Positions 52,306 through 64,000 of a stretch of 64,000 nucleotides of DNA are shown in pieces. How positions within the stretch are numbered: position 1 is the stretch's first letter; the number at the start of each line of letters is the position of its first letter. The notes below the pieces were generated by a model. That model made no database searches, was not told the DNA's origin, and was given only the letters and a program-made list of their open reading frames with translations. Source of the DNA: an uncultured Candidatus Rokubacteria bacterium (GTDB lineage Bacteria; Methylomirabilota; Methylomirabilia; Rokubacteriales; CSP1-6); contig CAVYTA010000008.1 of NCBI GenBank assembly GCA_963771355.1, positions 64,001-128,000 on the forward strand. Direction: 5' to 3'. The position numbers were made by a program, and so were the translations under genes.

Positions 52306-53589
52306 ATGGCCTTCGACTACAAGCAGTACTTCGGTGACATCGTGGTGGCGCAGAACCTCGTCACCCGGCCGGAGGAGCGCACCTGGCGGCTGGCCGCGCC
52401 CCCGCCCGATGCCGAGCATCACGACATCGTGCTCTATCTGGGCTGCAATGTCCTCCGCACCTCCCACATGATCAAGACCGTCACCGCCATCTTCGACCGG
52501 CTGGGGCTGGACTATGTCGCGGTGGGCGGGCCGACCTACTGCTGCGGCATCGTGCATCACCAGAACGGCGACACCGCCGCCTCCACCGGGATGAACCGGC
52601 GCACGAAGGAGCTCTTCGAGCGCTACACGCCGCGCGAGGTCGTGATGTGGTGCCCGTCCTGCATCTACTTCTACGACGAGGTGCAGAAGCTCGACCTTCC
52701 ATTTCCCACGCGGCATACGGCGGAGTTCCTCGCCGATCGGCTGGGCGAGCTCCCCCTCTCACCGGTGGCGGCGCGCCGGGTAGCGCTGCACGGCCACGGC
52801 GTCGGCGAGGCACGCCGGCGCGAGGGCGAGGCCGGCCGCCGGCTGCTGGCCGCGGTGCCGGGCCTCACCGTGGTGAGCCTCGAGCCCGACGAGCGCTTCG
52901 GCCGGAGCTGCAACCCCGCGCTCATGCAGAACCTCGGCCCCGAGGGCTGGCGCGCCCTGGCCCTGGGCGAGCTCGACCGCGCCCTCGCCGCGGGGGCGGA
53001 CACCTTCGCCGGCATGTATCACGGCTGCCAGCGTCAGCTCTGCGCCTTCGAGGCCGAGCGCCCCATCACCATCGAGCATTACCTGACGACGTTCGCGCGG
53101 GCCCTCGGCATCGAGTTCGAGGACACCTTCAAGAAGTACCGCCTCTGGGCCGACCCCGACCGCATCTTCGAGGACTCCACGCCCTGCCAGCAGGGGAATG
53201 GCGTGGACCCCGCCCGCGCGCGCGACCTCATCGCGCGGACCTTCGTGCCCATCGGCGCGGTGGCGCCCGGCCCGGCCGCGGGGACCTGGGCGCAGGTCAG
53301 TCGGGTACTGGCACGCCCGACGCGCCTGCTTGGTAGCTGTGGAGGCGGCGTGCGCGCGGGGCGGGGGGCGTGTGACATCCTCGCATTACAACATATGGCC
53401 CCGATGCTGAGAACCGTCGGGCTCATCATGTCATTCACATTCGGCCTTCTCGCGGCGCGTTCGCGGAGAAGCGCAGCCGCGGGCGAAGGTCTCTCGGATA
53501 GGGTTTCTCGCGACTTGCCGACGCCCCACGATGAGGCATTGCGGCAAGGCCTCCACGAGGTCAACTACGTGGAGGGCCGGAACATCTAG
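52306..53589 (+). CDS. CCG-domain (Fe-S)-binding protein; true end probably near 53300
   Basis: YLGC, YCCG, WCPSC and YHGC motifs; the last ~65 codons belong to the next degenerate gene. Confidence 0.75.
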   Translation: MAFDYKQYFGDIVVAQNLVTRPEERTWRLAAPPPDAEHHDIVLYLGCNVLRTSHMIKTVTAIFDRLGLDYVAVGGPTYCCGIVHHQNGDTAASTGMNRRTKELFERYTPREVVMWCPSCIYFYDEVQKLDLPFPTRHTAEFLADRLGELPLSPVAARRVALHGHGVGEARRREGEAGRRLLAAVPGLTVVSLEPDERFGRSCNPALMQNLGPEGWRALALGELDRALAAGADTFAGMYHGCQRQLCAFEAERPITIEHYLTTFARALGIEFEDTFKKYRLWADPDRIFEDSTPCQQGNGVDPARARDLIARTFVPIGAVAPGPAAGTWAQVSRVLARPTRLLGSCGGGVRAGRGACDILALQHMAPMLRTVGLIMSFTFGLLAARSRRSAAAGEGLSDRVSRDLPTPHDEALRQGLHEVNYVEGRNI

Positions 53590-54411
53590 ATAGAGCGTCG
53601 ATATTCGGAGGGTAAGCCCGAGCGGCTCCCCGACTTCGCCGACCGAGCGGTTGGCCTCAAGGTTGACGTCATCGTGGTCGACGCCTGCGGCGCATCGCTC
53701 AATGCCGCCAGTCAAGCTATCAGCGCGATCCCCATCGTCGTCGCTGCGTGTAAGATGACCTCGTTGCGGCGGGGCTTATCTCCAGCCTCGCCGACCGGGA
53801 GGTAACATCACCGGGCTGTCAGAGCTCACTCCGGAGCTCGGGGCCAAACGTCTGAGTTGCTGAAAGAGGCCGTCCCAGGATGAAACGCGTGGCCGTTCTA
53901 TGGAATACGACCTATTCGGAGCGGCTCAGTGCGCAACTTCCGCTTCTGGTCATCCGATTGGGTAGCGATGCGAGGCGGCAGTCCCAGGCGTTGGGCATCG
54001 ACGCTGCAATCGGTAGAGATCCGTGGTCCCGACGATTTCGATACCGCGTTCTCAGCCATGACCAAAGAGCGAGCGGACGCGATGATTGCATTCTCGGAGC
54101 CCCATCGATCGTCCTTCATCGGAAAACGCATCGCGGATCTCGCGGCGAAGATCCGCCGGCCGGCAATGTATGCATCCCGAGAGGTGGCGGAGGCGGGAGG
54201 ACTGATGTTCTACGGGCCGAGCAACGCTGACATGTTCCGGCGGGCCGGTGTTTATGTAGGCAAGATCTTGAAAGGGGCCAAGCCCGCAGATCTCCCCGAT
54301 GGAGCAACCCACGAAGTTCGAGCTGGTGATCAACCTCAAGGCCGCGAAGGCGCTCGGCACTCGCGATCCCGCAGTCGATCCTTCGCCGAGCGGACGAGGT
54401 GATCCGAGTGA
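53395..54411 (+). pseudogene. ABC substrate-binding protein (ABC_sub_bind type), multiply disrupted
   Basis: YVEGRNI*IERRY, PGGNITG, EAGGLMFYG, KILKGAKPADLP and EQPTKFELVINLK motifs across several frames. Confidence 0.8.
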
Positions 54412-55266
54412 AGGAGATGTGTCGCGGTGTGGCTGGCGGGCGTCCTGCTTCTCGGCGCGACGGCGCCGGTACTGGCCGAGACGGTTCTGGAGAAGATCCG
54501 ACGGACCGGGGTCCTCACCGCGGGGACGCGCGGCATCTCCATCTCTTTCGCATCCATCAACGAGAAGAACGAGTGGATCGGCTTCGCCATCGATCTCCTG
54601 GAAGCCATCCGGGCCCGCCTGGAGAAGAAGCTCGGCAAGCCCATCAAGCTCGAAAAGAGAGAGGTCACCGCGGAAACTCGCATCGGAGCCTCGTGGTCAA
54701 GGGGACCATCGACGTCGAGTGCGGGGTCCACCACCTACACTCGGAGCCGGGACGCGGCGGTGGACTTCTCCATCATCTTCTTCTTCACTGGTAATCAGCT
54801 CCTGGTGAAGAAGGGGAGCGGGATCAAGGGCCTGGCGGACGTGGCCGGCCGGCGGGTCGGGGTCGCCCGCGAAACGACCGGCGCACGAGCCCTCCGTGTT
54901 TCCCAGCCCAAGGCCAACGAGGTGACCTTCCCGGACCATCCGGCTGGCTTCCTGGCCCTCGAGCAGGGGAGGATCGCCGCCTATGCCGCCGACGGCATCC
55001 TGCTGGCCGGCTTCGCCGCGAAGGCCAGGAACCCCAAGGATTACGAAGTGGTGGGGGACTTCTTCTCGAAGGATCCCTACGCCTGCATGGTCCCGGAGAA
55101 CGACTCCAAGTGGCGCGACTTCGTGAACCATACCTTCATGGAGCTTATTGACAATGGAAAGTACTTCGAGCTCTACGACAAGTGGTTCGGGAAGCGGGCC
55201 GTGTTCCCCTATCCGATGTCGGATCAGGTTCGCAATTACATGATCATGCAGTCCATGCCGGAGTGA
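54408..55266 (+). CDS. Polar amino acid ABC substrate-binding protein (GltI-like), copy 1, with local frameshifts
   Basis: LEKIRRTG, VDFS and DSKWRDFVN motifs; LVVKGTIDVECG is out of frame at about 54690-54725. Confidence 0.8.
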
Positions 55267-55282
55267 CCGTGGAGGGCGTCCG

Positions 55283-56135
55283 ATGAAGAGATGCGTTGCG
55301 GTGTGGCTGGCCGGTGTCCTGCTTCTCGGCGCGGCCGCGCCGGTCCTGGCCGAGACGGTTCTGGAGAAGATCCGACGGACCGGGGTCCTCACCGCGGGGA
55401 CGCGCGGCATTTCCATCCCGTTCGCGTTCATCAACGAGAAGAACGAGTGGATCGGCTTCTCCGTCGATCTCCTGGAGGCCATACGGGCCGGCTGGAGAAG
55501 AAGCTCGGCAAGCCCATCAAGCTCGAAAAGAAGGAGATCGACCTGGTGACCCGGTTCAGCTGGTGGCCAACCGCGCGTGGACGTGGTGTGCGCGGCCGAC
55601 ACCAACACCCGGGGCCGGGACGAGACGGTAGACTTCTCGCTCAACTTCTTTTTTACCGGCGCCCAGCTCCTGGCGAAGAAGGGGAGCGGGATCAAAGGCT
55701 TGGCAGACGTGGTCGGTAAGCGCGTGGGCGCCGCCAAGGGGTCCACCGGCGAGAAAGCCCTGCGCGCCTCCCAGTCCAAGGCTGAACTGGTGACCTTCCC
55801 GGACCACGACGGAGGGTTTCCAGGCGTTGGAGCAAGGGAGGATCGTCGCCTACGCCAACGACGGCATTCTTTTGGTCGGCCTCGCTGCCAAGGCCAGAAA
55901 CCCAACGGACTACGAAGTGGTGGGGCGCTTCTTCTCGAAGGACCCGTACTCCTGCATGGTTCCGGAGAACGACTCCAAGTGGCGCGACTTCGTGAACCAC
56001 ACCTTCATGGAGCTGATCGACAACGGGAAATACTTCGAACTGTACGAGAAGTGGTTCGGGGAGCGCGGGGTAGTTCCCTATCCGATGTCGGATCAGGTTC
56101 GCAATTACATGATCATGCAGTTCATGCTAGAGTGA
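55283..56135 (+). CDS. Polar amino acid ABC substrate-binding protein, copy 2, frameshifted
   Basis: Four partial ORFs (55283, 55291, 55577, 55827) assemble into a paralog of copy 1. Confidence 0.8.
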
Positions 56136-56172
56136 GCTGGAAGCGCTGACTGGAAGCGCCACGGAGGCGACC

Positions 56173-56994
56173 ATGGACGACTACCTCGAGGCGAACCGGC
56201 GGCTATGGGATGCGTGGACGCCCCTCAACGTCGCCTCCGAGTTCTACGACGTCGAGGGCTTCAAGGCGGGTCGCGTGGACCGGCCGTCGATGCTCCACCA
56301 GCTCGAGGCGAATCTGGTCGGCGACGTCACGGGCCGGACGCTCCTCCACCTGCAATGCCACTTCGGCATGGACACCATCCGCTGGGCCCGGCGGGGGGCG
56401 CGGGCGACCGGCATCGACTTCTCCTCCGCGGCCATCGAGGCCGCGCGCCGGCTCGCCGCGGAGATGGGGGTGCCGGCGACCTTCGTCGAGAGCGACGTCT
56501 ACGCGCTCCCCGACCGCCTCGACCACCGCTTCGACGTGGTCTTCACCTCGCATGGGGTCCTCTGCTGGCTGCCCGACCTCGTCCGCTGGGCGGAGGTCAT
56601 CGCCCACTTCCTCGCGCCGGGCGGCGTCTTCTGCATCGTCGAGGCCCATCCCGTCGGGATGATCTTCGATGAGACGCGCGCGGACGGCGAGCTGCGCGTG
56701 CGGTTCCCGTACTTCCAGGGGCCCGAGCCCATCCGCGATGAGCACCCCGGCTCCTATGCCGCGCCGGACGCGCCGCTGCAGAGCGTGGAGCACGTGTGGA
56801 TTCACCCCATCGGGGAGGTCGTCGGCTCGCTCCTGCGCGCGGGGCTCCGCCTCGAGTCCTTCGCGGAGTACCCCTTCATGGGGTGGCGCTTCCTGCCCTG
56901 GATGGAGCAGCGTCCCGACGGTGCCTGGCAGCTCCCCGGCGCCGCCGCCACCCTGCCGCTGATGTTCTCGCTCACCGCGCGCAAGCCCGCCTGA
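56173..56994 (+). CDS. Class I SAM-dependent methyltransferase
   Basis: LLHLQCHFGMDT, GIDFS and FDVVFTS motifs. Confidence 0.92.
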   Translation: MDDYLEANRRLWDAWTPLNVASEFYDVEGFKAGRVDRPSMLHQLEANLVGDVTGRTLLHLQCHFGMDTIRWARRGARATGIDFSSAAIEAARRLAAEMGVPATFVESDVYALPDRLDHRFDVVFTSHGVLCWLPDLVRWAEVIAHFLAPGGVFCIVEAHPVGMIFDETRADGELRVRFPYFQGPEPIRDEHPGSYAAPDAPLQSVEHVWIHPIGEVVGSLLRAGLRLESFAEYPFMGWRFLPWMEQRPDGAWQLPGAAATLPLMFSLTARKPA

Positions 56995-57140
56995 CCCTTC
57001 AGGAGTCCTTCTCTCGCCTCCTTCCTCCAGCGCGAGAGCATGAAGGGGTGGATGTCCATCGTTTCCTCGGCCCGATCGCTCTGCCCATCCGACACCTCCC
57101 AGCGTTAGCCAGAAGTGTCTACTTTATCGAGGGAGATTCA
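56995..57140 (-). mobile_element. IS3-family remnant (left end plus internally deleted orfA)
   Basis: Minus strand TGAATCTCCCTCGATAAAGTAGACAC end, GGAGGT, ATG 57088 (MGRAIGPRK), then DIHPFMLSRWRKEAREG HTH fragment. Confidence 0.7.
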
Positions 57141-57166
57141 ACGGTCGGCTGCATGCGTTGTTAGGC
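57141..57166 (-). other. Half attC site interrupted by the IS remnant
   Basis: Minus strand GCCTAAC-aacgc-ATGCAGCCGAC has the same left arm as the attC at 58968-59027 and is followed directly by the IS end. Confidence 0.75.
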
Positions 57167-57224
57167 GGCATCCTGCGTTGCCGCTCCTCTAGTAGACGCT
57201 AACGTGATTGTGGTTTTTGCCGGC

Positions 57225-58047
57225 CTACGCCCGGCCACTCCCAATCAACATTTCGGCGCTCATCACAAGTCGTCCCTCGGACTAGAATTGCGTAAGGCGT
57301 GCGCGCACCTCTTCTCGAACTGCGCGTCGGCTGGGCTCAGGTAACGCGAGATAGGCCTGTGACATTTGCCCGGCCCCTGCCTCGATCGGCGCCCAGTACT
57401 CGTAGAACGACTCAACAATTCCTTGGTGCGTCTCGCGCGTCACGCGAACATCGCGAAAACCTGCCTCGCAGATAAGGCGTTCGAGCTGAGGTACGTTTCC
57501 GAAAGAAAAAGACAGGTGGAGTGCATTCCTCTGGTCGGGATAGATAGCCACTGAGCGTTTCGGCAAGAACGCCCCACATCGGCGCGCGATCGGGTGACGA
57601 GATGACGCATACGGCAGCTCGGCAGCCGGGCCGCAAAACACGTCGAAATTCTGCGAGGCCACGCGCGGGATCAGGGAAGAACATGAGGCCGAGCTGACAA
57701 ATCACCGCGTCGAAAGTGGCGTCTGGGAACACAAGGCCCTGCCCGTCTGAAACGACCGCAAGAAACCGTGCGTCGGACAACCGCGCGCATGCCTCGTCGA
57801 GCATCGCGGGGGAAATGTCCGAACCGACCACAAGCCCCGAGTCTCCGACGTGCCCCAGTGCCAATTGCGCTGCCTCGCCCGTCCCCGTGGCAACGTCGAG
57901 TACTCGATTCCCATCCCTGATCTCAGCGGCGGCCAACAACGCTGGAACGAACAGTCGCGACCAGCGTCCGATGTATTGCGCATATGCCGATCCATCGACG
58001 CGCCGTCCACGCGGTGCGTGCATCCCTGGTCCCCACGTAACGCTCAT
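57225..58047 (-). CDS. Cassette-borne class I methyltransferase (UbiE-like), frameshift near 57540 and internal TAG at 57282
   Basis: VLDVATGTG, FDAVICQLGLMFF and RVLRPG motifs; the frame continues SEGRLVMSAEMLIGSGRA after the TAG. Confidence 0.8.
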
Positions 58048-58074
58048 CTGCGCTCCCTTAAGGGGTACGCGGAA

Positions 58075-58918
58075 TCACACAACCTTATAGCGCTTCGCGA
58101 GTTGCGAGCCTGCCTCGGCTCCGACCAGTTGCTCAAGCTCCCTTGCGGCTGGCATTGCGTTGCCGAAGGTCACCGTAGCGCCGGTCTCGTGGAGTTCGCG
58201 CACAAAGTCCTTCATCGCTTGGTACGTCACGACGACGCTCTGAATAGGATAGATCGCAAGTTTGATCCCAGACGCGAGGACTGCTTCCTTCGAGGCATCG
58301 AGCACGAAACTGGCCATGGGCTTGCCTACTGTCGTTGCGAAGGAAGGCGTTTCAGCGAGGGGCAGGCCGGTAACAATCAGCATGTCAGCTCCAGCCTCGG
58401 CATACGCTTGGCACCGTTCGGTTGCCTCCTCCAACGAGCGTCCGATATAGAGTGCCTCACAACGCGCGATGAGGAGGGTGTCCGGGTCACGCAGAGCCTC
58501 AAGAGCGGCGCGAATCTTCTCCGTGGCAACGGGTAGTGGATGCAGCGTGCCGCCAGGTCCATAGAGCTTTCCTGGTGCGTGATCCTCAATGTGCATACCC
58601 GCAACGCCCGCAGCTTCGAACCGTCTCACGTGGTGATAAGCGTTCACGGCGTTGCCCGCACCTTCCTCCAGATCGGCGATCACCGGAACGTCTGTTGCTT
58701 CAACCATGAGGCGCGCTTGTTCGAGCAATTCGCTCATGGTTAGGAGAGACTGGTGCGGAAGTCCCCAGCGACTTCGCGGCGCAACCGTAGCTACCGACGT
58801 AGACGGCCCGAAAGCCTTGCCGTGCAACCAGTTTCGTTGTCAGGAGGTCGTGCGCCCCTGGGACGATTACTGGAGCGGTGTCTCGTATGAGTTCCCGTAG
58901 CCGGCTCGCGCCTTTCAT
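58075..58918 (-). CDS. Cassette-borne isocitrate lyase/PEP mutase family protein, frameshift near 58775
   Basis: PGAHDLL, PVIADLEEG, HIED and YAEAGAD motifs. Confidence 0.85.
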
Positions 58919-58967
58919 GAGTCCTACCTTTCAAAGACTGGTTCTGAAAAGTTCGCGTAGTTCAGTC

Positions 58968-59027
58968 GTCCAACGTGCCGTATCAGCCGCGGCGCGCAAC
59001 GCCGTCGGCTGCATGCGGAGGTTAGAG
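58968..59027 (-). other. attC site (60 bp)
   Basis: Minus strand CTCTAAC...ATGCAGCCG...CGGCTGAT...GTTGGAC: inverted arms with an unpaired base, 6 nt after the toxin stop. Confidence 0.9.
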
Positions 59028-59033
59028 GGCTGA

Positions 59034-59331
59034 TCAGAGGCGCGACCGCCAATAGCCGGGGCGACGACGACCGTGGGCCACGGCCACGATCTCGATGTCC
59101 TCACCGCGAAGGAGGTACACCAGGCTGAAGGGTATCGTGGAAATACGTATCGGCGTGCGCGGCTGCCGTACGTGGCCATGTTCGGGGGCTCGCCTCGATC
59201 GCGGCAATGGCCCGCGCCAGTTCCTCTCGAAACGCGTGCCCGGCTTCGAAACTTCTCGCAGCATACCAGTCATACGTGGATTCCGCCTCCTGCGCTGCAG
59301 CAGGATGGAACCGGACCGCCGCTGAGGCCAT
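59034..59331 (-). CDS. RelE/ParE family toxin (two frameshifts)
   Basis: FHPAAAQE...WY, RRYVFPRYP and VAVAHGRRRPGYW motifs in three frames. Confidence 0.85.
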
Positions 59332-59556
59332 TCAGCGCTGGTACAACCGCGCTCTCAGCTCTTCCCAGGGAACCGCCTGGAGCTGGCCAGAATACAGCTC
59401 AGAGATTAGACGCTCTATCTCGGCCTGACAGGCTTCCTCGGCACCTTCCTCAGACTCAGCGTCTAAGCTGTCGACTAGAAGAAGAATGAGTGCGGCTCGC
59501 TCCTTCGGATCTAGCTGCATCGCTTCCTCAAATAGCTCCCGCGCCGATCTCGCCAT
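59332..59556 (-). CDS. Addiction module antitoxin
   Basis: 74 aa acidic protein, ERAAL...SLD...EIER...VPWEE, directly upstream of the toxin. Confidence 0.88.
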   Translation of the reverse strand: MARSARELFEEAMQLDPKERAALILLLVDSLDAESEEGAEEACQAEIERLISELYSGQLQAVPWEELRARLYQR

Positions 59557-59595
59557 GCGTCGATCCTACCATCCCATTACTACGTACGTTTGCCC

Positions 59596-59665
59596 CTGTA
59601 ACGCCACGCTCAGCGGCCGGGGCGAGCAACGTGAGCCTCCGGTACGTTGGAGCGTGATGTAGGGC
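59596..59665 (-). other. Degenerate attC site (70 bp)
   Basis: Minus strand GCCCTAC-at-CACGCTCCAACG...CGCTGAGCGTG-gc-GTTACAG; arms pair but both cores deviate. Confidence 0.7.
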
Positions 59666-59678
59666 AGAGTGTCATTGC

Positions 59679-60200
59679 TCAGTAGATATGGCAGTGAGAC
59701 TCACTGGTGGGCGGTTTTTCACCTTCACGAGTGAGAAGACCGCTGACTGAGAAAGCATGGCCTGCATAGGCGCCTTCGCCGAAAGCGCTCTCGCAGCTGG
59801 TACACCACACTCTGGCTGACTGGTGAGAGTGTGTCGTCTCCAGACAGAGGCTGGGCGACTCTCGAATCGTAATAGCGCTCTCGAAATGTGACGCGCGCAT
59901 AGGAGTAGATGACGTCAAAGAGGTTAGGAGCATAGCAGATATAGCGCACAGGCAGGGCGGCGGCGTAGCGGATGAACAAGACGCTGATTCAGCTCTGCGA
60001 CGAGTCTGGATCTGACGGGAAGGAGGACGTCGCGGGAGAAGCGCAGGATAGTGTAGTAAGCAAGCTCATAGACGCGCGCGACCAGGTACGTAAAGACACT
60101 CTCTCTCCTCTCGCATGAATAGAGGCGCTAGAATGCGTAGCAGGACAATCTCGCAAGTAAAAGCGACAGTTGGGAGGATCGTCATGCGTTCACTTTTCTC
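59679..60200 (-). pseudogene. Degraded paralog of the unknown cassette gene at 60395-60935
   Basis: Fragments TYLVARVYEL, YYDSRVAQPLSGD and FGEGAYAGHAFS; 5' boundary approximate. Confidence 0.7.
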
Positions 60201-60323
60201 TCTCTGAGGAAGATGGGGGACACGGTCACTCTATGATGTGGTCAGCGCGTCGCAGCACCGACGGCAGAATGGTGACGCCGAGCGCTTGTCGGTTTTGAGA
60301 TTGACCCCGCGCTCATCGGTCGG

Positions 60324-60383
60324 CCCGAACGCTCAGGATAACTTGCGGCGCGAAGCGCCGTCAGGTTCATCCTGCTGTTAGCC
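60324..60383 (-). other. attC site (60 bp)
   Basis: Minus strand GGCTAAC-agc-AGGATGAACCTGACGGCGC-ttc-GCGCCGCAAGTTATCCT-gagc-GTTCGGG. Confidence 0.9.
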
Positions 60384-60394
60384 AGCGCTCCCGA

Positions 60395-60935
60395 TCAAGA
60401 GAACGCAGAACTCTGGAAGTAGGTCAGTCGATCTGCCCACGGCCTTCGCCCCGAAGCGGGCCATCGACCGTCGCGAATCAGCTGAGCGCCCATCGAAAAG
60501 GCATGGCCAGCGTACGCACCTTCTCCGAACCCGTTCTCGAAGTGATCCACCACGGTCTGGCCTGTGGGGGTGAGTGCCTCGTCCCCCGTCAACGACTGCA
60601 CGGTCCTGGAGTCATAGTAGTGGCCCGCGGAAGACCGGATGGCCATCGGCGTTGTTGATCTCGATGAGCCCTTGCACATAGCCGCTCATTCGCGCGGGCC
60701 GCCCGCTCGCATCACGGATGACAATCCTCTGATTCAGCTCCCCGCGGAGTCGGGCCTTGATCGGTAGTTGAGCGCCGCCCGTGAAGCGTAACGTCGCCTC
60801 GTAGGCGATCTCATAGCCACGCGCGACCAAGTAGGTAACTCCTTGCTTATCCTCACGGACGAACTCGGGTGCGCGGATACGGCGTAGCTCAACCTCGCAG
60901 GTGAATGGGCCAGTGGGCAAGGGTTCTGATGCCAT
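60395..60935 (-). CDS. Cassette-borne hypothetical protein, frameshift near 60622
   Basis: ORFs 60612..60935 and 60395..60679 join as VFRG-HYYDSR; start uncertain. Confidence 0.7.
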
Positions 60936-61028
60936 TGCGCGCGCCCCCTCTCGGATCGATGTTGTGAGGCCTCATCGACTGTGATCGCCACGGTGAGCCC
61001 GCTGTCACTGGTCCTGCTGCCCTTGTCT

Positions 61029-61050
61029 GGCTAACTAGAATTATCTTGGT
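61029..61050 (-). other. attI-like core / 5' boundary of the first cassette
   Basis: Minus strand AAGATAATTCTA-GTTAGCCAG; the 9-mer complements CTGGCTAAC of that cassette's attC; no attC hairpin upstream. Confidence 0.65.
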
Positions 61051-61248
61051 CTGTGTAGCGTGGGGGACCAAGCGAGGGGGGCTGTGTAGCATCGTTGGGG
61101 TGGCTCCTTGTCCTTCAAGGATATCTCAGGTGGTGCGTAGTTGGTTGGAGTCTGGGGGGTGTGGCGGGACGAGATAGCTGGACCTGTGTAGCGGGGTGGA
61201 GGCTGCGGGCGTGGGGGAGGGGTCGGAACGCATCCGGCACCGTGTAGC
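61051..61248. repeat. Dispersed direct repeats CTGTGTAGC
   Basis: Exact copies at 61051, 61082 and 61184; variants at 61133 (GTGCGTAG) and 61242 (GTGTAGC). Confidence 0.75.
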
Positions 61249-61301
61249 CTTGCCGGCTAGGCCCCGGACTTCAAACCCCGTGATGGGCGACGCTATGCCC
61301 A
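61225..61301 (+). pseudogene. Possible degenerate tRNA-Sec fragment
   Basis: GGAA start, CCGGA-CTTCAAA loop (UCA anticodon) and TGGGCG/TGCCCA variable-arm hairpin; anticodon stem mismatched and T-arm absent. Confidence 0.35.
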
Positions 61302-61358
61302 AGAACCGCGGCCTACTGAATTAAATACGCGTTCGCTCCGCCACGGCGGGCGGCCCGC

Positions 61359-61997
61359 TCACACCATCAAGAGGCCTCGGCGCATCCCGATGGCCACCGC
61401 CTCGGTGCGGCTCCGCGCGCTCAGCTTGTCGAGGATCACCGCGATGTGGAACTTCACGGTGTGGGTCGAGATGCCGAGGCTCTTGCCGATGGCACGGTTG
61501 CCTAGCCCCTCGGCCATCATGCCCAGGATCTCGAGCTCGCGAGGGGTGAGCGGGTCGGTCCGGGACTCCGCCGGGGTGCGGCGAACCACCGTGTCGACGG
61601 AGACGGGGGGCGCCGACGGGTGCAGGACGACGAGACCCGCCGCCAGCGCTTCGATGCCGGCGGCGATCTCGTGAGCGGAGGCGTCCCGGGGCAGGATCGC
61701 GCGCACGCCGGCACGCAGCAGCCGGGCGAAGGCCGCCGGCGCGACGCCGCCGCCCAGCAGCATGATGGGAGGCCGGCGGGCGGTCCCCGACAGCGCGCGC
61801 AGGAAGGCCTCGACGGGCCGCGTCCCCGGGTCGATCAACAACACGTCCGCGGAGACCGCCGACCCTGCCGGGTCGCCCGTCTGGTCGGCCGCCGGGGACG
61901 GCGGCGCGGCCAGCCGCCATCCCGATCGGGCAGCGACCAGCGCTTCCAGCCGCGCCTGCGTTGTCGGGCTCGATGCGAGCACCGCGACGGCGATCAC
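61359..61997 (-). CDS. NarL/LuxR-type regulator with atypical receiver domain
   Basis: LTPRELEIL...GLGNRAI...TVKFHI...RTEAV HTH; GTGA coupling. Confidence 0.9.
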   Translation of the reverse strand: MIAVAVLASSPTTQARLEALVAARSGWRLAAPPSPAADQTGDPAGSAVSADVLLIDPGTRPVEAFLRALSGTARRPPIMLLGGGVAPAAFARLLRAGVRAILPRDASAHEIAAGIEALAAGLVVLHPSAPPVSVDTVVRRTPAESRTDPLTPRELEILGMMAEGLGNRAIGKSLGISTHTVKFHIAVILDKLSARSRTEAVAIGMRRGLLMV

Positions 61998-62593
61998 CGT
62001 GGGGCGCACCGCATCGCGAAGGTCTCGACCACTCGGCTCGGCACGGCCAGGGCCAGCCTGCCCGCGATCATCGCGTTGACGCCGACCACCCGTCCGCCGG
62101 CATCGGCCATGGGCCCGCCGGAGTTGCCGGGGGCGAGGCGGAGATCGGCCTGAATCCACCGGGGCCCCGCGTGGTGGCCCGGTGCCGGCGCCGCGTGCAC
62201 GATCCCCGTGACCACGGCCCCGACCAGTCCGAACGGATGGCCGACCGCCAGGACCAGCTCGCCCGCGCGAAGACGATCCGAGTCGCCCACCCGCGCGGCC
62301 GGAAGATCCCGTGCCTCCACGCGGAGCAGAGCAAGATCCAGGTCTCGGTCCCAGGCGACGAGCGCAGCCGGCAAGCGACGCCCATCCGCCAGGACGACCT
62401 GCGCGCCGGACCGCGCCGACTCGGCCTGGGCCACGACATGAGCGCTCGTCACGATGAGCCCGTCGGAGCGCCAGATGACGCCCGACCCGCTGGTTCGCCC
62501 CCTGGATCGCAATTCCACCGTGTTCTCCCGCAGCCGACCGACGACATCGGCGAGGTCGCTCGTCAGCAGATGCGGCCGCTCCTCCACCTCCAT
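61994..62593 (-). CDS. Trypsin-like (S1C) serine protease without PDZ
   Basis: TSAH, DLALL and GNSGG catalytic triad motifs. Confidence 0.9.
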   Translation of the reverse strand: MEVEERPHLLTSDLADVVGRLRENTVELRSRGRTSGSGVIWRSDGLIVTSAHVVAQAESARSGAQVVLADGRRLPAALVAWDRDLDLALLRVEARDLPAARVGDSDRLRAGELVLAVGHPFGLVGAVVTGIVHAAPAPGHHAGPRWIQADLRLAPGNSGGPMADAGGRVVGVNAMIAGRLALAVPSRVVETFAMRCAPR

Positions 62594-62594
62594 C

Positions 62595-63494
62595 CTATCG
62601 CCCCCGGGGCGGGCGCTCGGCAAGGGTGACCGCCACGTCGAGCGGTGCGCCGGCGCGGATCAGCGAGACCGTGACCGCGGTGCCCACTCTCCGTCCGGCG
62701 ACGGCGGTCTGCACGTCATCGAGATCGTGCAGGGGCGTGCCTTCGAGGGCCACCAGCACGTCTCCGAGCATCAGGCCGGCGCGCGCGGCGGGGCCATCCG
62801 CCACCACGCCCACGACGATGAGGCCGCGGGCGTCCGCGCCTGGCGCCAGTGGTCTCAGCGCCTCCGGGAGAGCCACCGGCTGCAGTCCGACCCCCAGATA
62901 GCCGCGGCTGACGCGTCCGGTCGCCAGCAGCTCGTCCACGACGCGGTTCACCGTCGAGGTCGGCACCGCGAGCTCGAGCTGTCGCGACAGGCCGGAGGTT
63001 ACCAGCCCGGCCACCTTGCCGGACGCGTCCACGAGCGGTCCGCCCGAGAAGCCGGGATAGAGCACCAGGTCCACGCGAAGAAGGCGGTCCACCTCGCCCC
63101 CTCGCCCCGTGCGCCACGCGCCGCCGACGGCGCTCACCACGCCCCAGCTGGCGCGCGGTCCATATCCGACAGCGAGGACCAGATGGCCCACCTTGAGCTC
63201 GGCGCTGTCGCCGATCTCGGCAGCGGGCCGATCACTCTCGCCGATCCGGAGGACGGCGAGGTCGGTGCCCGGGTCGCGCCCCACGAGGGTCGCCGGCGCC
63301 GCCCGCCCGTCTGACCAGGCGACGCGGATCTCCTCGTCCACCCGGACGGTGTGCTCTGCCGTCACGACGATTCCCGGGCGCCAGAGCACCCCGGTCGACG
63401 GCAGTCGCGGGCGCGCGTGCACGGTGACGACGGCTCGAGCGGCGCGCTCGACCGCCGCCGCGAGGTCATTCGAGAGCGAAAGCAGAGTCTGCAT
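62595..63494 (-). CDS. Trypsin-like (S1C) serine protease with PDZ
   Basis: TAEH, DLAVL and GFSGG motifs; GYLGV...GPAARAGL..GD PDZ. Confidence 0.9.
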   Translation of the reverse strand: MQTLLSLSNDLAAAVERAARAVVTVHARPRLPSTGVLWRPGIVVTAEHTVRVDEEIRVAWSDGRAAPATLVGRDPGTDLAVLRIGESDRPAAEIGDSAELKVGHLVLAVGYGPRASWGVVSAVGGAWRTGRGGEVDRLLRVDLVLYPGFSGGPLVDASGKVAGLVTSGLSRQLELAVPTSTVNRVVDELLATGRVSRGYLGVGLQPVALPEALRPLAPGADARGLIVVGVVADGPAARAGLMLGDVLVALEGTPLHDLDDVQTAVAGRRVGTAVTVSLIRAGAPLDVAVTLAERPPRGR

Positions 63495-63663
63495 TGGGAT
63501 CCTCCCTTCGGAAGCCGTCGGGGCTCCCGGTCTCGAGCCCACGATGCAACGGGCCCGACCCGCTGGGAATCGCCCGATTGGCTAGGGGGGTGCCGAGAGC
63601 GGTCTTGAACGAGGGCCTGTGCTAGCCTCCTGGCACCGAATTCCCGACAGGAGGTCAAGGCCC

Positions 63664-64000
63664 ATGGACTACGCGGACTACCAGCACCTCGTCTTCGAGC
63701 GCCGGCCCAACGGCGTGGTGCTCATCACCATCAACCGGCCGGAGGTGCTCAATGCGACCAATGACCGCCTGCACTGGGAGCTGACCCAGGTCTGGCTCAC
63801 CCTGGATGCCGACGCGACGGCACGCGTCGCGGTGGTGACGGGCGCCGGCCGCGCCTTCTCGGCGGGGGGCGACCTGGACATGGTGGACGCCAACAGCCGG
63901 GACCCGAAGCGCCTGGCCCGGACCCTGCGCGAGGCCTCGGACATCGTCTACAACATGATCAACCTCGACAAGCCCGTCATCTCCGCCATCAACGGGGTCG
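63664..64000 (+). CDS. Enoyl-CoA hydratase/isomerase family protein (partial)
   Basis: Manual translation MDYADYQHLVFERRPNGVVLITINRPEVLNA...FSAGGDL...KPVISAING; GGAGG RBS. Confidence 0.9.
   Translation, partial: MDYADYQHLVFERRPNGVVLITINRPEVLNATNDRLHWELTQVWLTLDADATARVAVVTGAGRAFSAGGDLDMVDANSRDPKRLARTLREASDIVYNMINLDKPVISAINGV

Follow-up and report, generated by a model that had tools for sequence, protein, structure and literature searches.

Clusters of attC sites lacking an integron integrase (CALINs) and reverse integrons are both already known. The survey that defined CALINs lists four origins for them and leaves their origin an open question, speculates on cassette donation, describes attI as unknown for most integrons, and states that attI could be searched for only in classes 1-3; 95% of its CALINs had no recognisable pseudogene of the integrase gene intI, and half lay in genomes without intI (PMC4889954). 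The same text calls the inverted-integrase group paraphyletic; the reverse arrangement is defined in PMC7691350 and an inverted clade is mentioned in PMC8352920. Other accounts cover archaeal attI sites downstream of intI (bioRxiv 2022.02.06.479319), the insertion of cassettes at attG sites (bioRxiv 2022.09.11.507474), cassette capture from transformed DNA (PMC12614218), and, in Xanthomonas, intI decay with CALINs at several loci that can be mobilised in trans (bioRxiv 2025.06.18.660453). Here, we describe a cassette array in 64,000 nucleotides (the window) of an uncultured Candidatus Rokubacteria bacterium (GenBank assembly GCA_963771355.1, contig CAVYTA010000008.1, positions 64,001 to 128,000). 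We read it, with a probability of about 0.7, as the attI site, leader and four cassettes of a reverse chromosomal integron without intI, likely imported from a related locus, likely dormant, and likely capable of renewed cassette gain or loss when provided with an integrase from elsewhere.

The genome under study (G000) comprises 5.53 Mb in 8 contigs and is 99.77% complete; the window lies on contig C8. In the titles and abstract openings of the open-access literature, no paper on integrons in Rokubacteria or Methylomirabilota was found, nor were attI-retaining CALINs or multi-locus attI platforms, although supplements may hold such elements.

The cassette array and its attI platform

The array was examined with a covariance model, R1, built from 26 attC sites, all from loci outside the window; the training sites were chosen by hairpin scans and by eye, and two rows of the alignment are out of register. 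Three attC sites were matched within 1.4 kb on one strand, and the next-best match in the window scored 16 bits (E 0.094; 38 matches at E<=5). The features of the array are as follows.

61035-61227, minus strand: attI platform, a leader of ~190 bp ending ...TTCTAG|TT, with the crossover between 61035 and 61034
60330-61034, minus strand: cassette 1, encoding a 169-aa all-beta protein (open reading frame 60935 to ~60424)
60324-60383, minus strand: attC 1, 60 bp, 51.3 bits (E 1.1e-10); bottom strand forms a canonical attC hairpin
59602-60329, minus strand: cassette 2, a homologue of the cassette 1 gene that aligns to cassette 1
59596-59665, minus strand: attC 2, 70 bp, degenerate as assembled, 28.0 bits (E 8.7e-5)
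58974-59601, minus strand: cassette 3, an addiction-module antitoxin (59332-59556) and a frameshifted ParE/RelE-type toxin (~59034-59331)
58968-59027, minus strand: attC 3, 60 bp, 57.1 bits (E 3.9e-12); bottom strand forms a canonical attC hairpin
57141-58973, minus strand: cassette 4, a frameshifted isocitrate-lyase/phosphoenolpyruvate (PEP)-mutase-family gene (58075-58918) and a class I methyltransferase gene (58047 to ~57225)
57141-57166, minus strand: attC 4, interrupted left half (R''/L'' only), 10.3 bits, cut by a stub resembling an insertion sequence (IS)

A preliminary description, made from the letters alone, had proposed hairpins at these positions and had named a lack of attC model matches there as evidence against it; the R1 matches fall on them. 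In attC 2, TAC replaces AAC, and the site folds poorly and sits in an error-rich stretch of the assembly. The half site is indeed a left half only. Short-read contigs of runs X4, X5, and X6 cover the point where it meets the IS-like stub, record 17 of X5 spanning 57015-57187 with 0 differences; strain variation was read throughout from contigs of seven runs (X1, X2, X3, X4, X5, X6, and X9), and the runs matching the window best may include the source sample. The proposed complementarity between each cassette boundary and its attC was confirmed at 9/9 positions in cassette 1 and 7/10 in cassette 4, and approximately in cassettes 2 and 3. All genes between 57.1 and 61.0 kb lie on the minus strand, and the lower GC content that had been noticed is real (0.602 in the block against 0.713 and 0.738 in the flanking genes), the nearby stretch 53500-56150 being low as well (0.623). 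An Rfam scan of 54000-64000 gave nothing relevant, and no resistance gene was among the families matched in the array.

Searches with PF00589 and TIGR02249 and for DNA remnants found no integron integrase near the array, and none of the 11 PF00589 matches in the genome is on C8, in agreement with the earlier remark that no tyrosine recombinase was nearby. The block is a real integron cassette array and, as had been suggested, a CALIN by definition, with at least two clustered attC sites on one strand (three by our own model R1) and no integrase nearby; it has no adjoining intI, as a complete integron would. It shares with CALINs the number of attC sites, the lack of nearby intI, a short array, an adjoining IS-like stub, and a genome without intI (PMC4889954). 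Unlike the surveyed CALINs, it keeps attI and leader, all four arrays of G000 are headed by attI, and two of them carry intI stubs of 55-73 bp that went unreported in the scans with TIGR02249 and PF00589. A more fitting description of the block is that of a reverse-integron relic that has kept its attI and belongs to a multi-locus set as one of its nodes.

The attI site was recognised by sequence comparison. G000 holds four copies of the leader (in the window and at C4:240633, C6:1214145, and C6:2498449), which share their last 14 bases, diverge after G|TT, and each head an array, with 3, 10, 4, and 8 R1-scored attC sites, respectively. When 150 of 21148 candidates in the genome were scored with R1, whose training set included many C4 and C6 sites, 18 of 21 matches were array sites, the others being an opposite-strand echo, a weak lone match, and a weak extra C4 site. 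In a genome of the same genus (G002), at the locus orthologous to that on C4, the leader begins at the intI stop codon and cassettes follow on the same strand. Its conservation stops at G|TT, beyond which the first cassettes differ, and attI thus heads the window array as in a complete integron, with the leader ending at G|TT and the same site standing behind the G002 intI. GCTACAC repeats at 61192, 61090, and 61059 are putative integrase-binding sites. The G|TT crossover is shared with class 1 attI1, and the 17-mer at 61081-61097 is identical at 15/17 positions to the DR1 region of attI1 (L045), with 0/300 shuffles above 13; unlike in class 1, the spacing is -65 (attI1, -40), the core is different, and intI is not divergent as intI1 is. 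The preliminary description, which gave the array as 57141-61035, missed the leader up to 61227 and the limits of the block at 56998 and 61333.

The attI pattern matched 18 metagenome loci, of which 16 carry the leader; the other two (L058 and L067) were excluded because the DNA upstream of their match is unrelated. The leader profile also matched in G001, G004, and G007 (two matches), with no intI seen directly upstream. Leaders group by locus, in about ten loci, and that of the window groups with those of locus A (support 92/88; 86% to the C4 copy). At locus G (L054 and L069), the platform adjoins a pair of tRNA-Ser genes, and this site is empty in G000. Two attC arrays of G006 (L037 and L038) have no match to the leader profile or intI and have cassettes in common with the G000 arrays. 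A decayed intI followed by the same attI core occurs in a Gemmatimonadota metagenome-assembled genome (L052).

CALINs or single attC sites lacking an integrase (SALINs) could also arise with no platform involved, if an integrase acting in trans placed cassettes de novo at a secondary GTT site. This attG route was experimentally shown (bioRxiv 2022.09.11.507474); it likewise places cassettes away from the integrase gene, and the shortness of the window array agrees with it. However, the array has three attC sites and an attI, whereas a SALIN has a single attC and no attI at its insertion point. Moreover, the crossover is preceded by 190 bp of conserved attI leader, which follows intI in relatives, and the insertion point is a true attI rather than a chance chromosomal site. 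The allele without the block (see below) lacks the leader as well, and therefore the platform arrived together with the cassettes. We consider the attG route largely refuted and very improbable.

Loss of intI and exchange of cassettes at related loci

No intact intI was found in G000: no match exceeded the TIGR02249 cut-off, and tblastn with the integrases of relatives returned only an 18-residue C-terminal stub at C4. The two best tyrosine-recombinase matches were rejected as IntI, having gaps across the IntI-specific insertion, and are presumably XerC/XerD-like. The sequence at C6:985865-986379 was also rejected, as a frameshifted non-integron tyrosine integrase; by eye, it ends just before a tRNA-like sequence. 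Across the order, 73 of 183 genomes have an IntI match (three unpublished genomes being part of the count), against 1 of 7 congeners.

The loss of intI can be followed stepwise at locus A (panE-DUF2277), where the gene is of full length with three frameshifts in G002, 5'-truncated in L061, 167 bp long in L070, and 73 bp long on C4 of G000, and is reduced to four scraps in G003. In this G003 sequence (L020, contig C51), the four scraps adjoin one another in their original order and another sequence takes the place of the attI core, with attC sites still following. In G000, a 55-bp stub remains at C6:1214k, and none at C6:2498k or in the window, where six of seven intI queries showed no similarity above shuffles and one gave p 0.025. 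The upstream side could be judged at 12 of the 16 leader-bearing metagenome loci; none has a full intI, three have a partial one, and nine have none.

Orientation was judged in the 1.5-kb flanks of the best-scoring, not randomly sampled, intI matches, three loci from unpublished genomes being excluded. At 9/11 and 17/25 loci (26/36 together), attC sites follow downstream of intI on its own strand; no locus is divergent, and the other 10 loci have no attC in these flanks. The co-oriented intI with attI downstream that defines reverse integrons is seen in the copies of relatives and in the G000 stubs, the window copy retaining only the leader. The preliminary description had expected intI right next to attI in the usual layout, which is wrong for this lineage: intI is co-oriented, not divergent, and ends ~190 bp before attI. 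By its layout, including direct repeats before the crossover, the platform is like reverse integrons such as that of Treponema denticola (PMC7691350; PMC4889954). Unlike in the Treponema denticola type, the reverse layout is the rule across the order and occurs at many loci, and the window copy has no intI. The 5' flanks of 30 intI genes fell into 25 neighbourhoods; therefore, the platform is not confined to a single locus. A Gemmatirosa reverse integron (L046) has the closest IntI in the plasmid set (64%).

In the mechanism we propose, IntI would have assembled the cassettes into an array through attI x attC recombination at G|TT, and the intI-leader-attI platform would have settled at many chromosomal sites in the lineage. 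Deletions would then have stripped intI locus by locus, with attI staying usable in trans.

Signs of such use come from sister loci. At loci B, F, and G, which have no intI, paired sequences share 89-96% identity in the 450 bp leading up to the crossover and part from each other at G|TT; between L051 and L068, the first ~500 bp differ and the following 1457 bp are in common at 95.6%. The first cassette at locus H, also without intI (L062, from base 1), recurs as the second one at locus A of G000 (96%), and the first cassette of locus G was found inside the locus-A array of G003 (93%). Since precise change at attI requires IntI, as is established in integron biology (PMC4889954), the cassettes at loci B, F, and G were most likely exchanged, once intI had been lost, by an integrase whose gene lies elsewhere, judging from these sequence comparisons. 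The differing first cassettes could alternatively stem from homologous recombination within the leader, the partner being an allele that carries intI, but no such allele was seen at these loci. Relatives thus vary at the attI crossover of loci without intI, unlike the surveyed CALINs, which points to likely capture as well as donation. The record of L051 is titled Ca. Nitrosocosmicus; the contig is that of G003, a genome of this bacterial genus, and its flanks are 89% identical to G000, which suggests a mislabelled deposit.

The window array itself is likely dormant now, because X1, X4, and X5 all have cassette 1 first at its attI junction. The earlier alternatives of an array orphaned or serviced in trans would then both hold at different times: the array is orphaned now, and its sister platforms point to turnover in trans. 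The accessible account of sedentary integrons in Xanthomonas describes a similar loss or inactivation of intI, with CALINs at several conserved loci (bioRxiv 2025.06.18.660453). There, intI is kept at one locus, ilvD, and that account reports no attI at the extra CALINs; each extra array here has its own attI platform.

The block, its empty allele, and its arrival

The array lies in a strain-variable block, whose limits and neighbours are as follows.

56998-61333, minus strand: whole strain-variable block, 4336 bp, between methyltransferase and LuxR-family genes
56173-56994, plus strand: flanking methyltransferase gene, convergent with the LuxR-family gene
ending at 61359, minus strand: flanking LuxR-family gene, convergent with the methyltransferase gene
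61228-61333, plus strand: end segment, 106 bp, with a weak tRNA-Sec-like vestige at 61236-61313 and no intI remnant
56998-57143, minus strand: IS-like stub of a left end, truncated at the block boundary; HTH_Tnp_1 (PF01527) E 0.022, below the cut-off

In six of the seven runs (X1, X2, X3, X5, X6, and X9, from three studies, not X4), contigs join 56997 to 61334 with three other letters between them; a long side of this joint (250 letters) is present only in X5, the other runs having 30-35 letters. Pieces of the filled allele are present in the same runs, and its junctions are bridged by record 9 of X4 (56900-57603) and record 14 of X2 (61236-61365, 32 letters past the junction). The flanks of the empty and filled alleles differ at 0 of 250 bp and 11 of 589 bp. 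The empty site is a compact gap between convergent genes that starts 3 bp after a stop codon. In three of three congeners, other genes stand behind the LuxR orthologue and the block is absent; the preliminary description had named conservation of the genes without attC sites in relatives as evidence against an array, and the block was not found there. The near-identical flanks, compact empty site, and empty congeners favour recent import, and we infer that the block was an already intI-less segment of a locus-A-like integron. Insertion of the whole block by IntI was rejected because the empty site lacks a GTT, although TT stands at each of the skipped ends. The route of the block to the gap between the LuxR-family and methyltransferase genes is the least certain part of our account.

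It is also conceivable, though unlikely, that a complete integron decayed in place, losing intI and its distal end by deletion and lying inert since, with the empty allele as the last deletion. The stepwise erosion of intI at loci A and C, the cutting of both block ends through elements (the IS-like stub and the 61228-61333 segment), the real decay in cassettes 3 and 4, and the 14% divergence of the window leader from the C4 copy all fit this course. The compact convergent gap with near-identical flanks, the three congeners without the block, and the lack of any intI trace argue against it.

The block could instead be the remnant of a tRNA-Sec-targeting island or of an IS-borne segment that delivered an intI-less array. 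At one end stands the weak tRNA-Sec-like segment, with a 28-bp match to the anticodon arm of the G000 selC (E 0.042) and, by eye, a flank past the junction that resembles the selC 3' end; the other end is the IS-like stub, and 38% of CALINs adjoin an IS according to Cury 2016 (PMC4889954). However, the tRNA-Sec model RF01852 gave 61236-61313 only 18.5 bits (E 0.23), far below its gathering threshold of 47, C8 has no island integrase, and no terminal repeats or target duplication were seen at the block ends. We hold this origin to be quite improbable; it would account for delivery only and is compatible with our reading of the block as an imported integron. The stretch 61236-61313 (plus strand) would form a weak tRNA-Sec-like cloverleaf with a TCA anticodon loop; ARAGORN found no tRNA gene in the segment (L019), and the 61228-61333 segment was matched in 0 of 150 genomes of the family. 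The stub, possibly of the IS3 family although that label is weak, is single-copy in G000, lacks its right end, and matched no named IS and no plasmid.

Import followed by dormancy draws on the attC sites, the attI crossover, the leader behind the intI stop codon of relatives, the erosion of intI at sister loci, the failure to find an intact intI in G000, and the empty allele. Several observations weigh against it. The empty allele may have arisen by deletion, and the window locus has no intI remnant that would attest loss in place. The support of 92/88 for grouping the window leader with locus A falls below the 95/80 star of the tool. No sigma-70 consensus promoter that might serve as the cassette promoter Pc was found in 60900-61450, the leader included. 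X1, X4, and X5 show no variation behind the window attI, and because the first cassette is invariant, activity in trans at the window rests on the sister loci. Finally, the only near-full intI among the 7 congeners is that of G002, with its three frameshifts, and the genus therefore showed no functional integrase that could act as donor.

Cassette contents and implications

The cassette 1 protein is 96% identical to P0001 over the first 104 aa and has 75 homologues, but matched no Pfam or NCBIfam family. Its structure was predicted with a mean local distance difference score (pLDDT) of 93.6; its Foldseek matches to beta-barrel cyclases have template-modelling (TM) scores <= 0.36, which allow no assignment. 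Homologues occur in 3 of 182 other genomes, with attC just upstream at two of the three loci. The two frameshifts in the gene are assembly errors: the indels at 60467 and 60622 are absent in X5, and X2 shows two gaps. In cassette 4 (PF13714 and PF08241), the methyltransferase indel near 57540 (4/4 runs) and the stop change at 57284 (3/4) are likewise assembly errors. The cassette 1 and methyltransferase genes are probably intact, because these four changes are absent from the short-read contigs. The shift in the PEP-mutase-family gene persists, with no gap in X1, X2, X3, or X5 and one in X6. Elsewhere, cassette 4 has one partial match (68%), without attC.

Cassette 3 matched PF09720 (E 1.5e-9), TIGR02574, and, below the cut-off, PF05016 (E 0.0057); the toxin indel at 59170 is an assembly error, and a second shift is uncorrected in X5 and X6. 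A joint from 58970 to 59602 in X5 was rejected as an excision of cassette 3, having a side of only 26 letters in a single contig and three intervening letters that do not match the expected product. The substitutions in cassette 2 number 31/27/47 at the three codon positions, with G>T and G>C as the most frequent changes, and contigs disagree with it at 10/154 and 15/222 letters and leave its core uncovered. The weak third-position bias, directional loss of G, and contig disagreement point to a probable poor consensus rather than to hypermutation or an old paralogue. The sequence of cassette 2 is likely unreliable, and for this reason the degeneracy of attC 2 may be an artefact, as may some of the drop in GC content. 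The many consensus errors and the uncovered core might suggest that the entire block is an assembly artefact. However, short-read contigs bridge the distal, proximal, and attI-cassette 1 junctions, which refutes this for the ends, though not for the order of cassettes 2 and 3, and makes it hardly credible for the whole.

Six of the 40 genes of G000 for PF04392 ATP-binding cassette (ABC) substrate-binding proteins lie inside attC arrays, which make up ~0.5% of the genome (C4:241021, C4:245542, C6:2496323, C6:2497450, C6:1219859, and C6:1216165); similar genes, by eye, head arrays in G002 and G003 (see L021 and L020). Integrons may feed the expansion of this family. Beside the block, two tandem near-duplicate genes resembling substrate-binding proteins by eye (54427-56135, plus strand) are both frameshifted, with 62% GC and no attC matches; on its other side, genes for a trypsin-PDZ protease, a trypsin-like protease, and a LuxR-family regulator form one apparent operon (61994-63542, minus strand).

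Taken alone, the window array is an ordinary, partly decayed CALIN. In this lineage, the loss of intI can be read step by step, from the full gene to stubs to its absence, while attI is retained. The reverse integrons thereby come to include an order of abundant uncultured soil bacteria, and attI and attC sites are defined exactly enough for testing recombination in trans. More tentatively, with somewhat less than even confidence, we suggest that Rokubacteriales may run a distributed integron, in which the platform seeds sites and sheds intI, a single integrase, left over or passing through, replenishes a network of attI sites, and integrase-free platforms spread between strains. If so, many CALINs would be live capture sites rather than graveyards.

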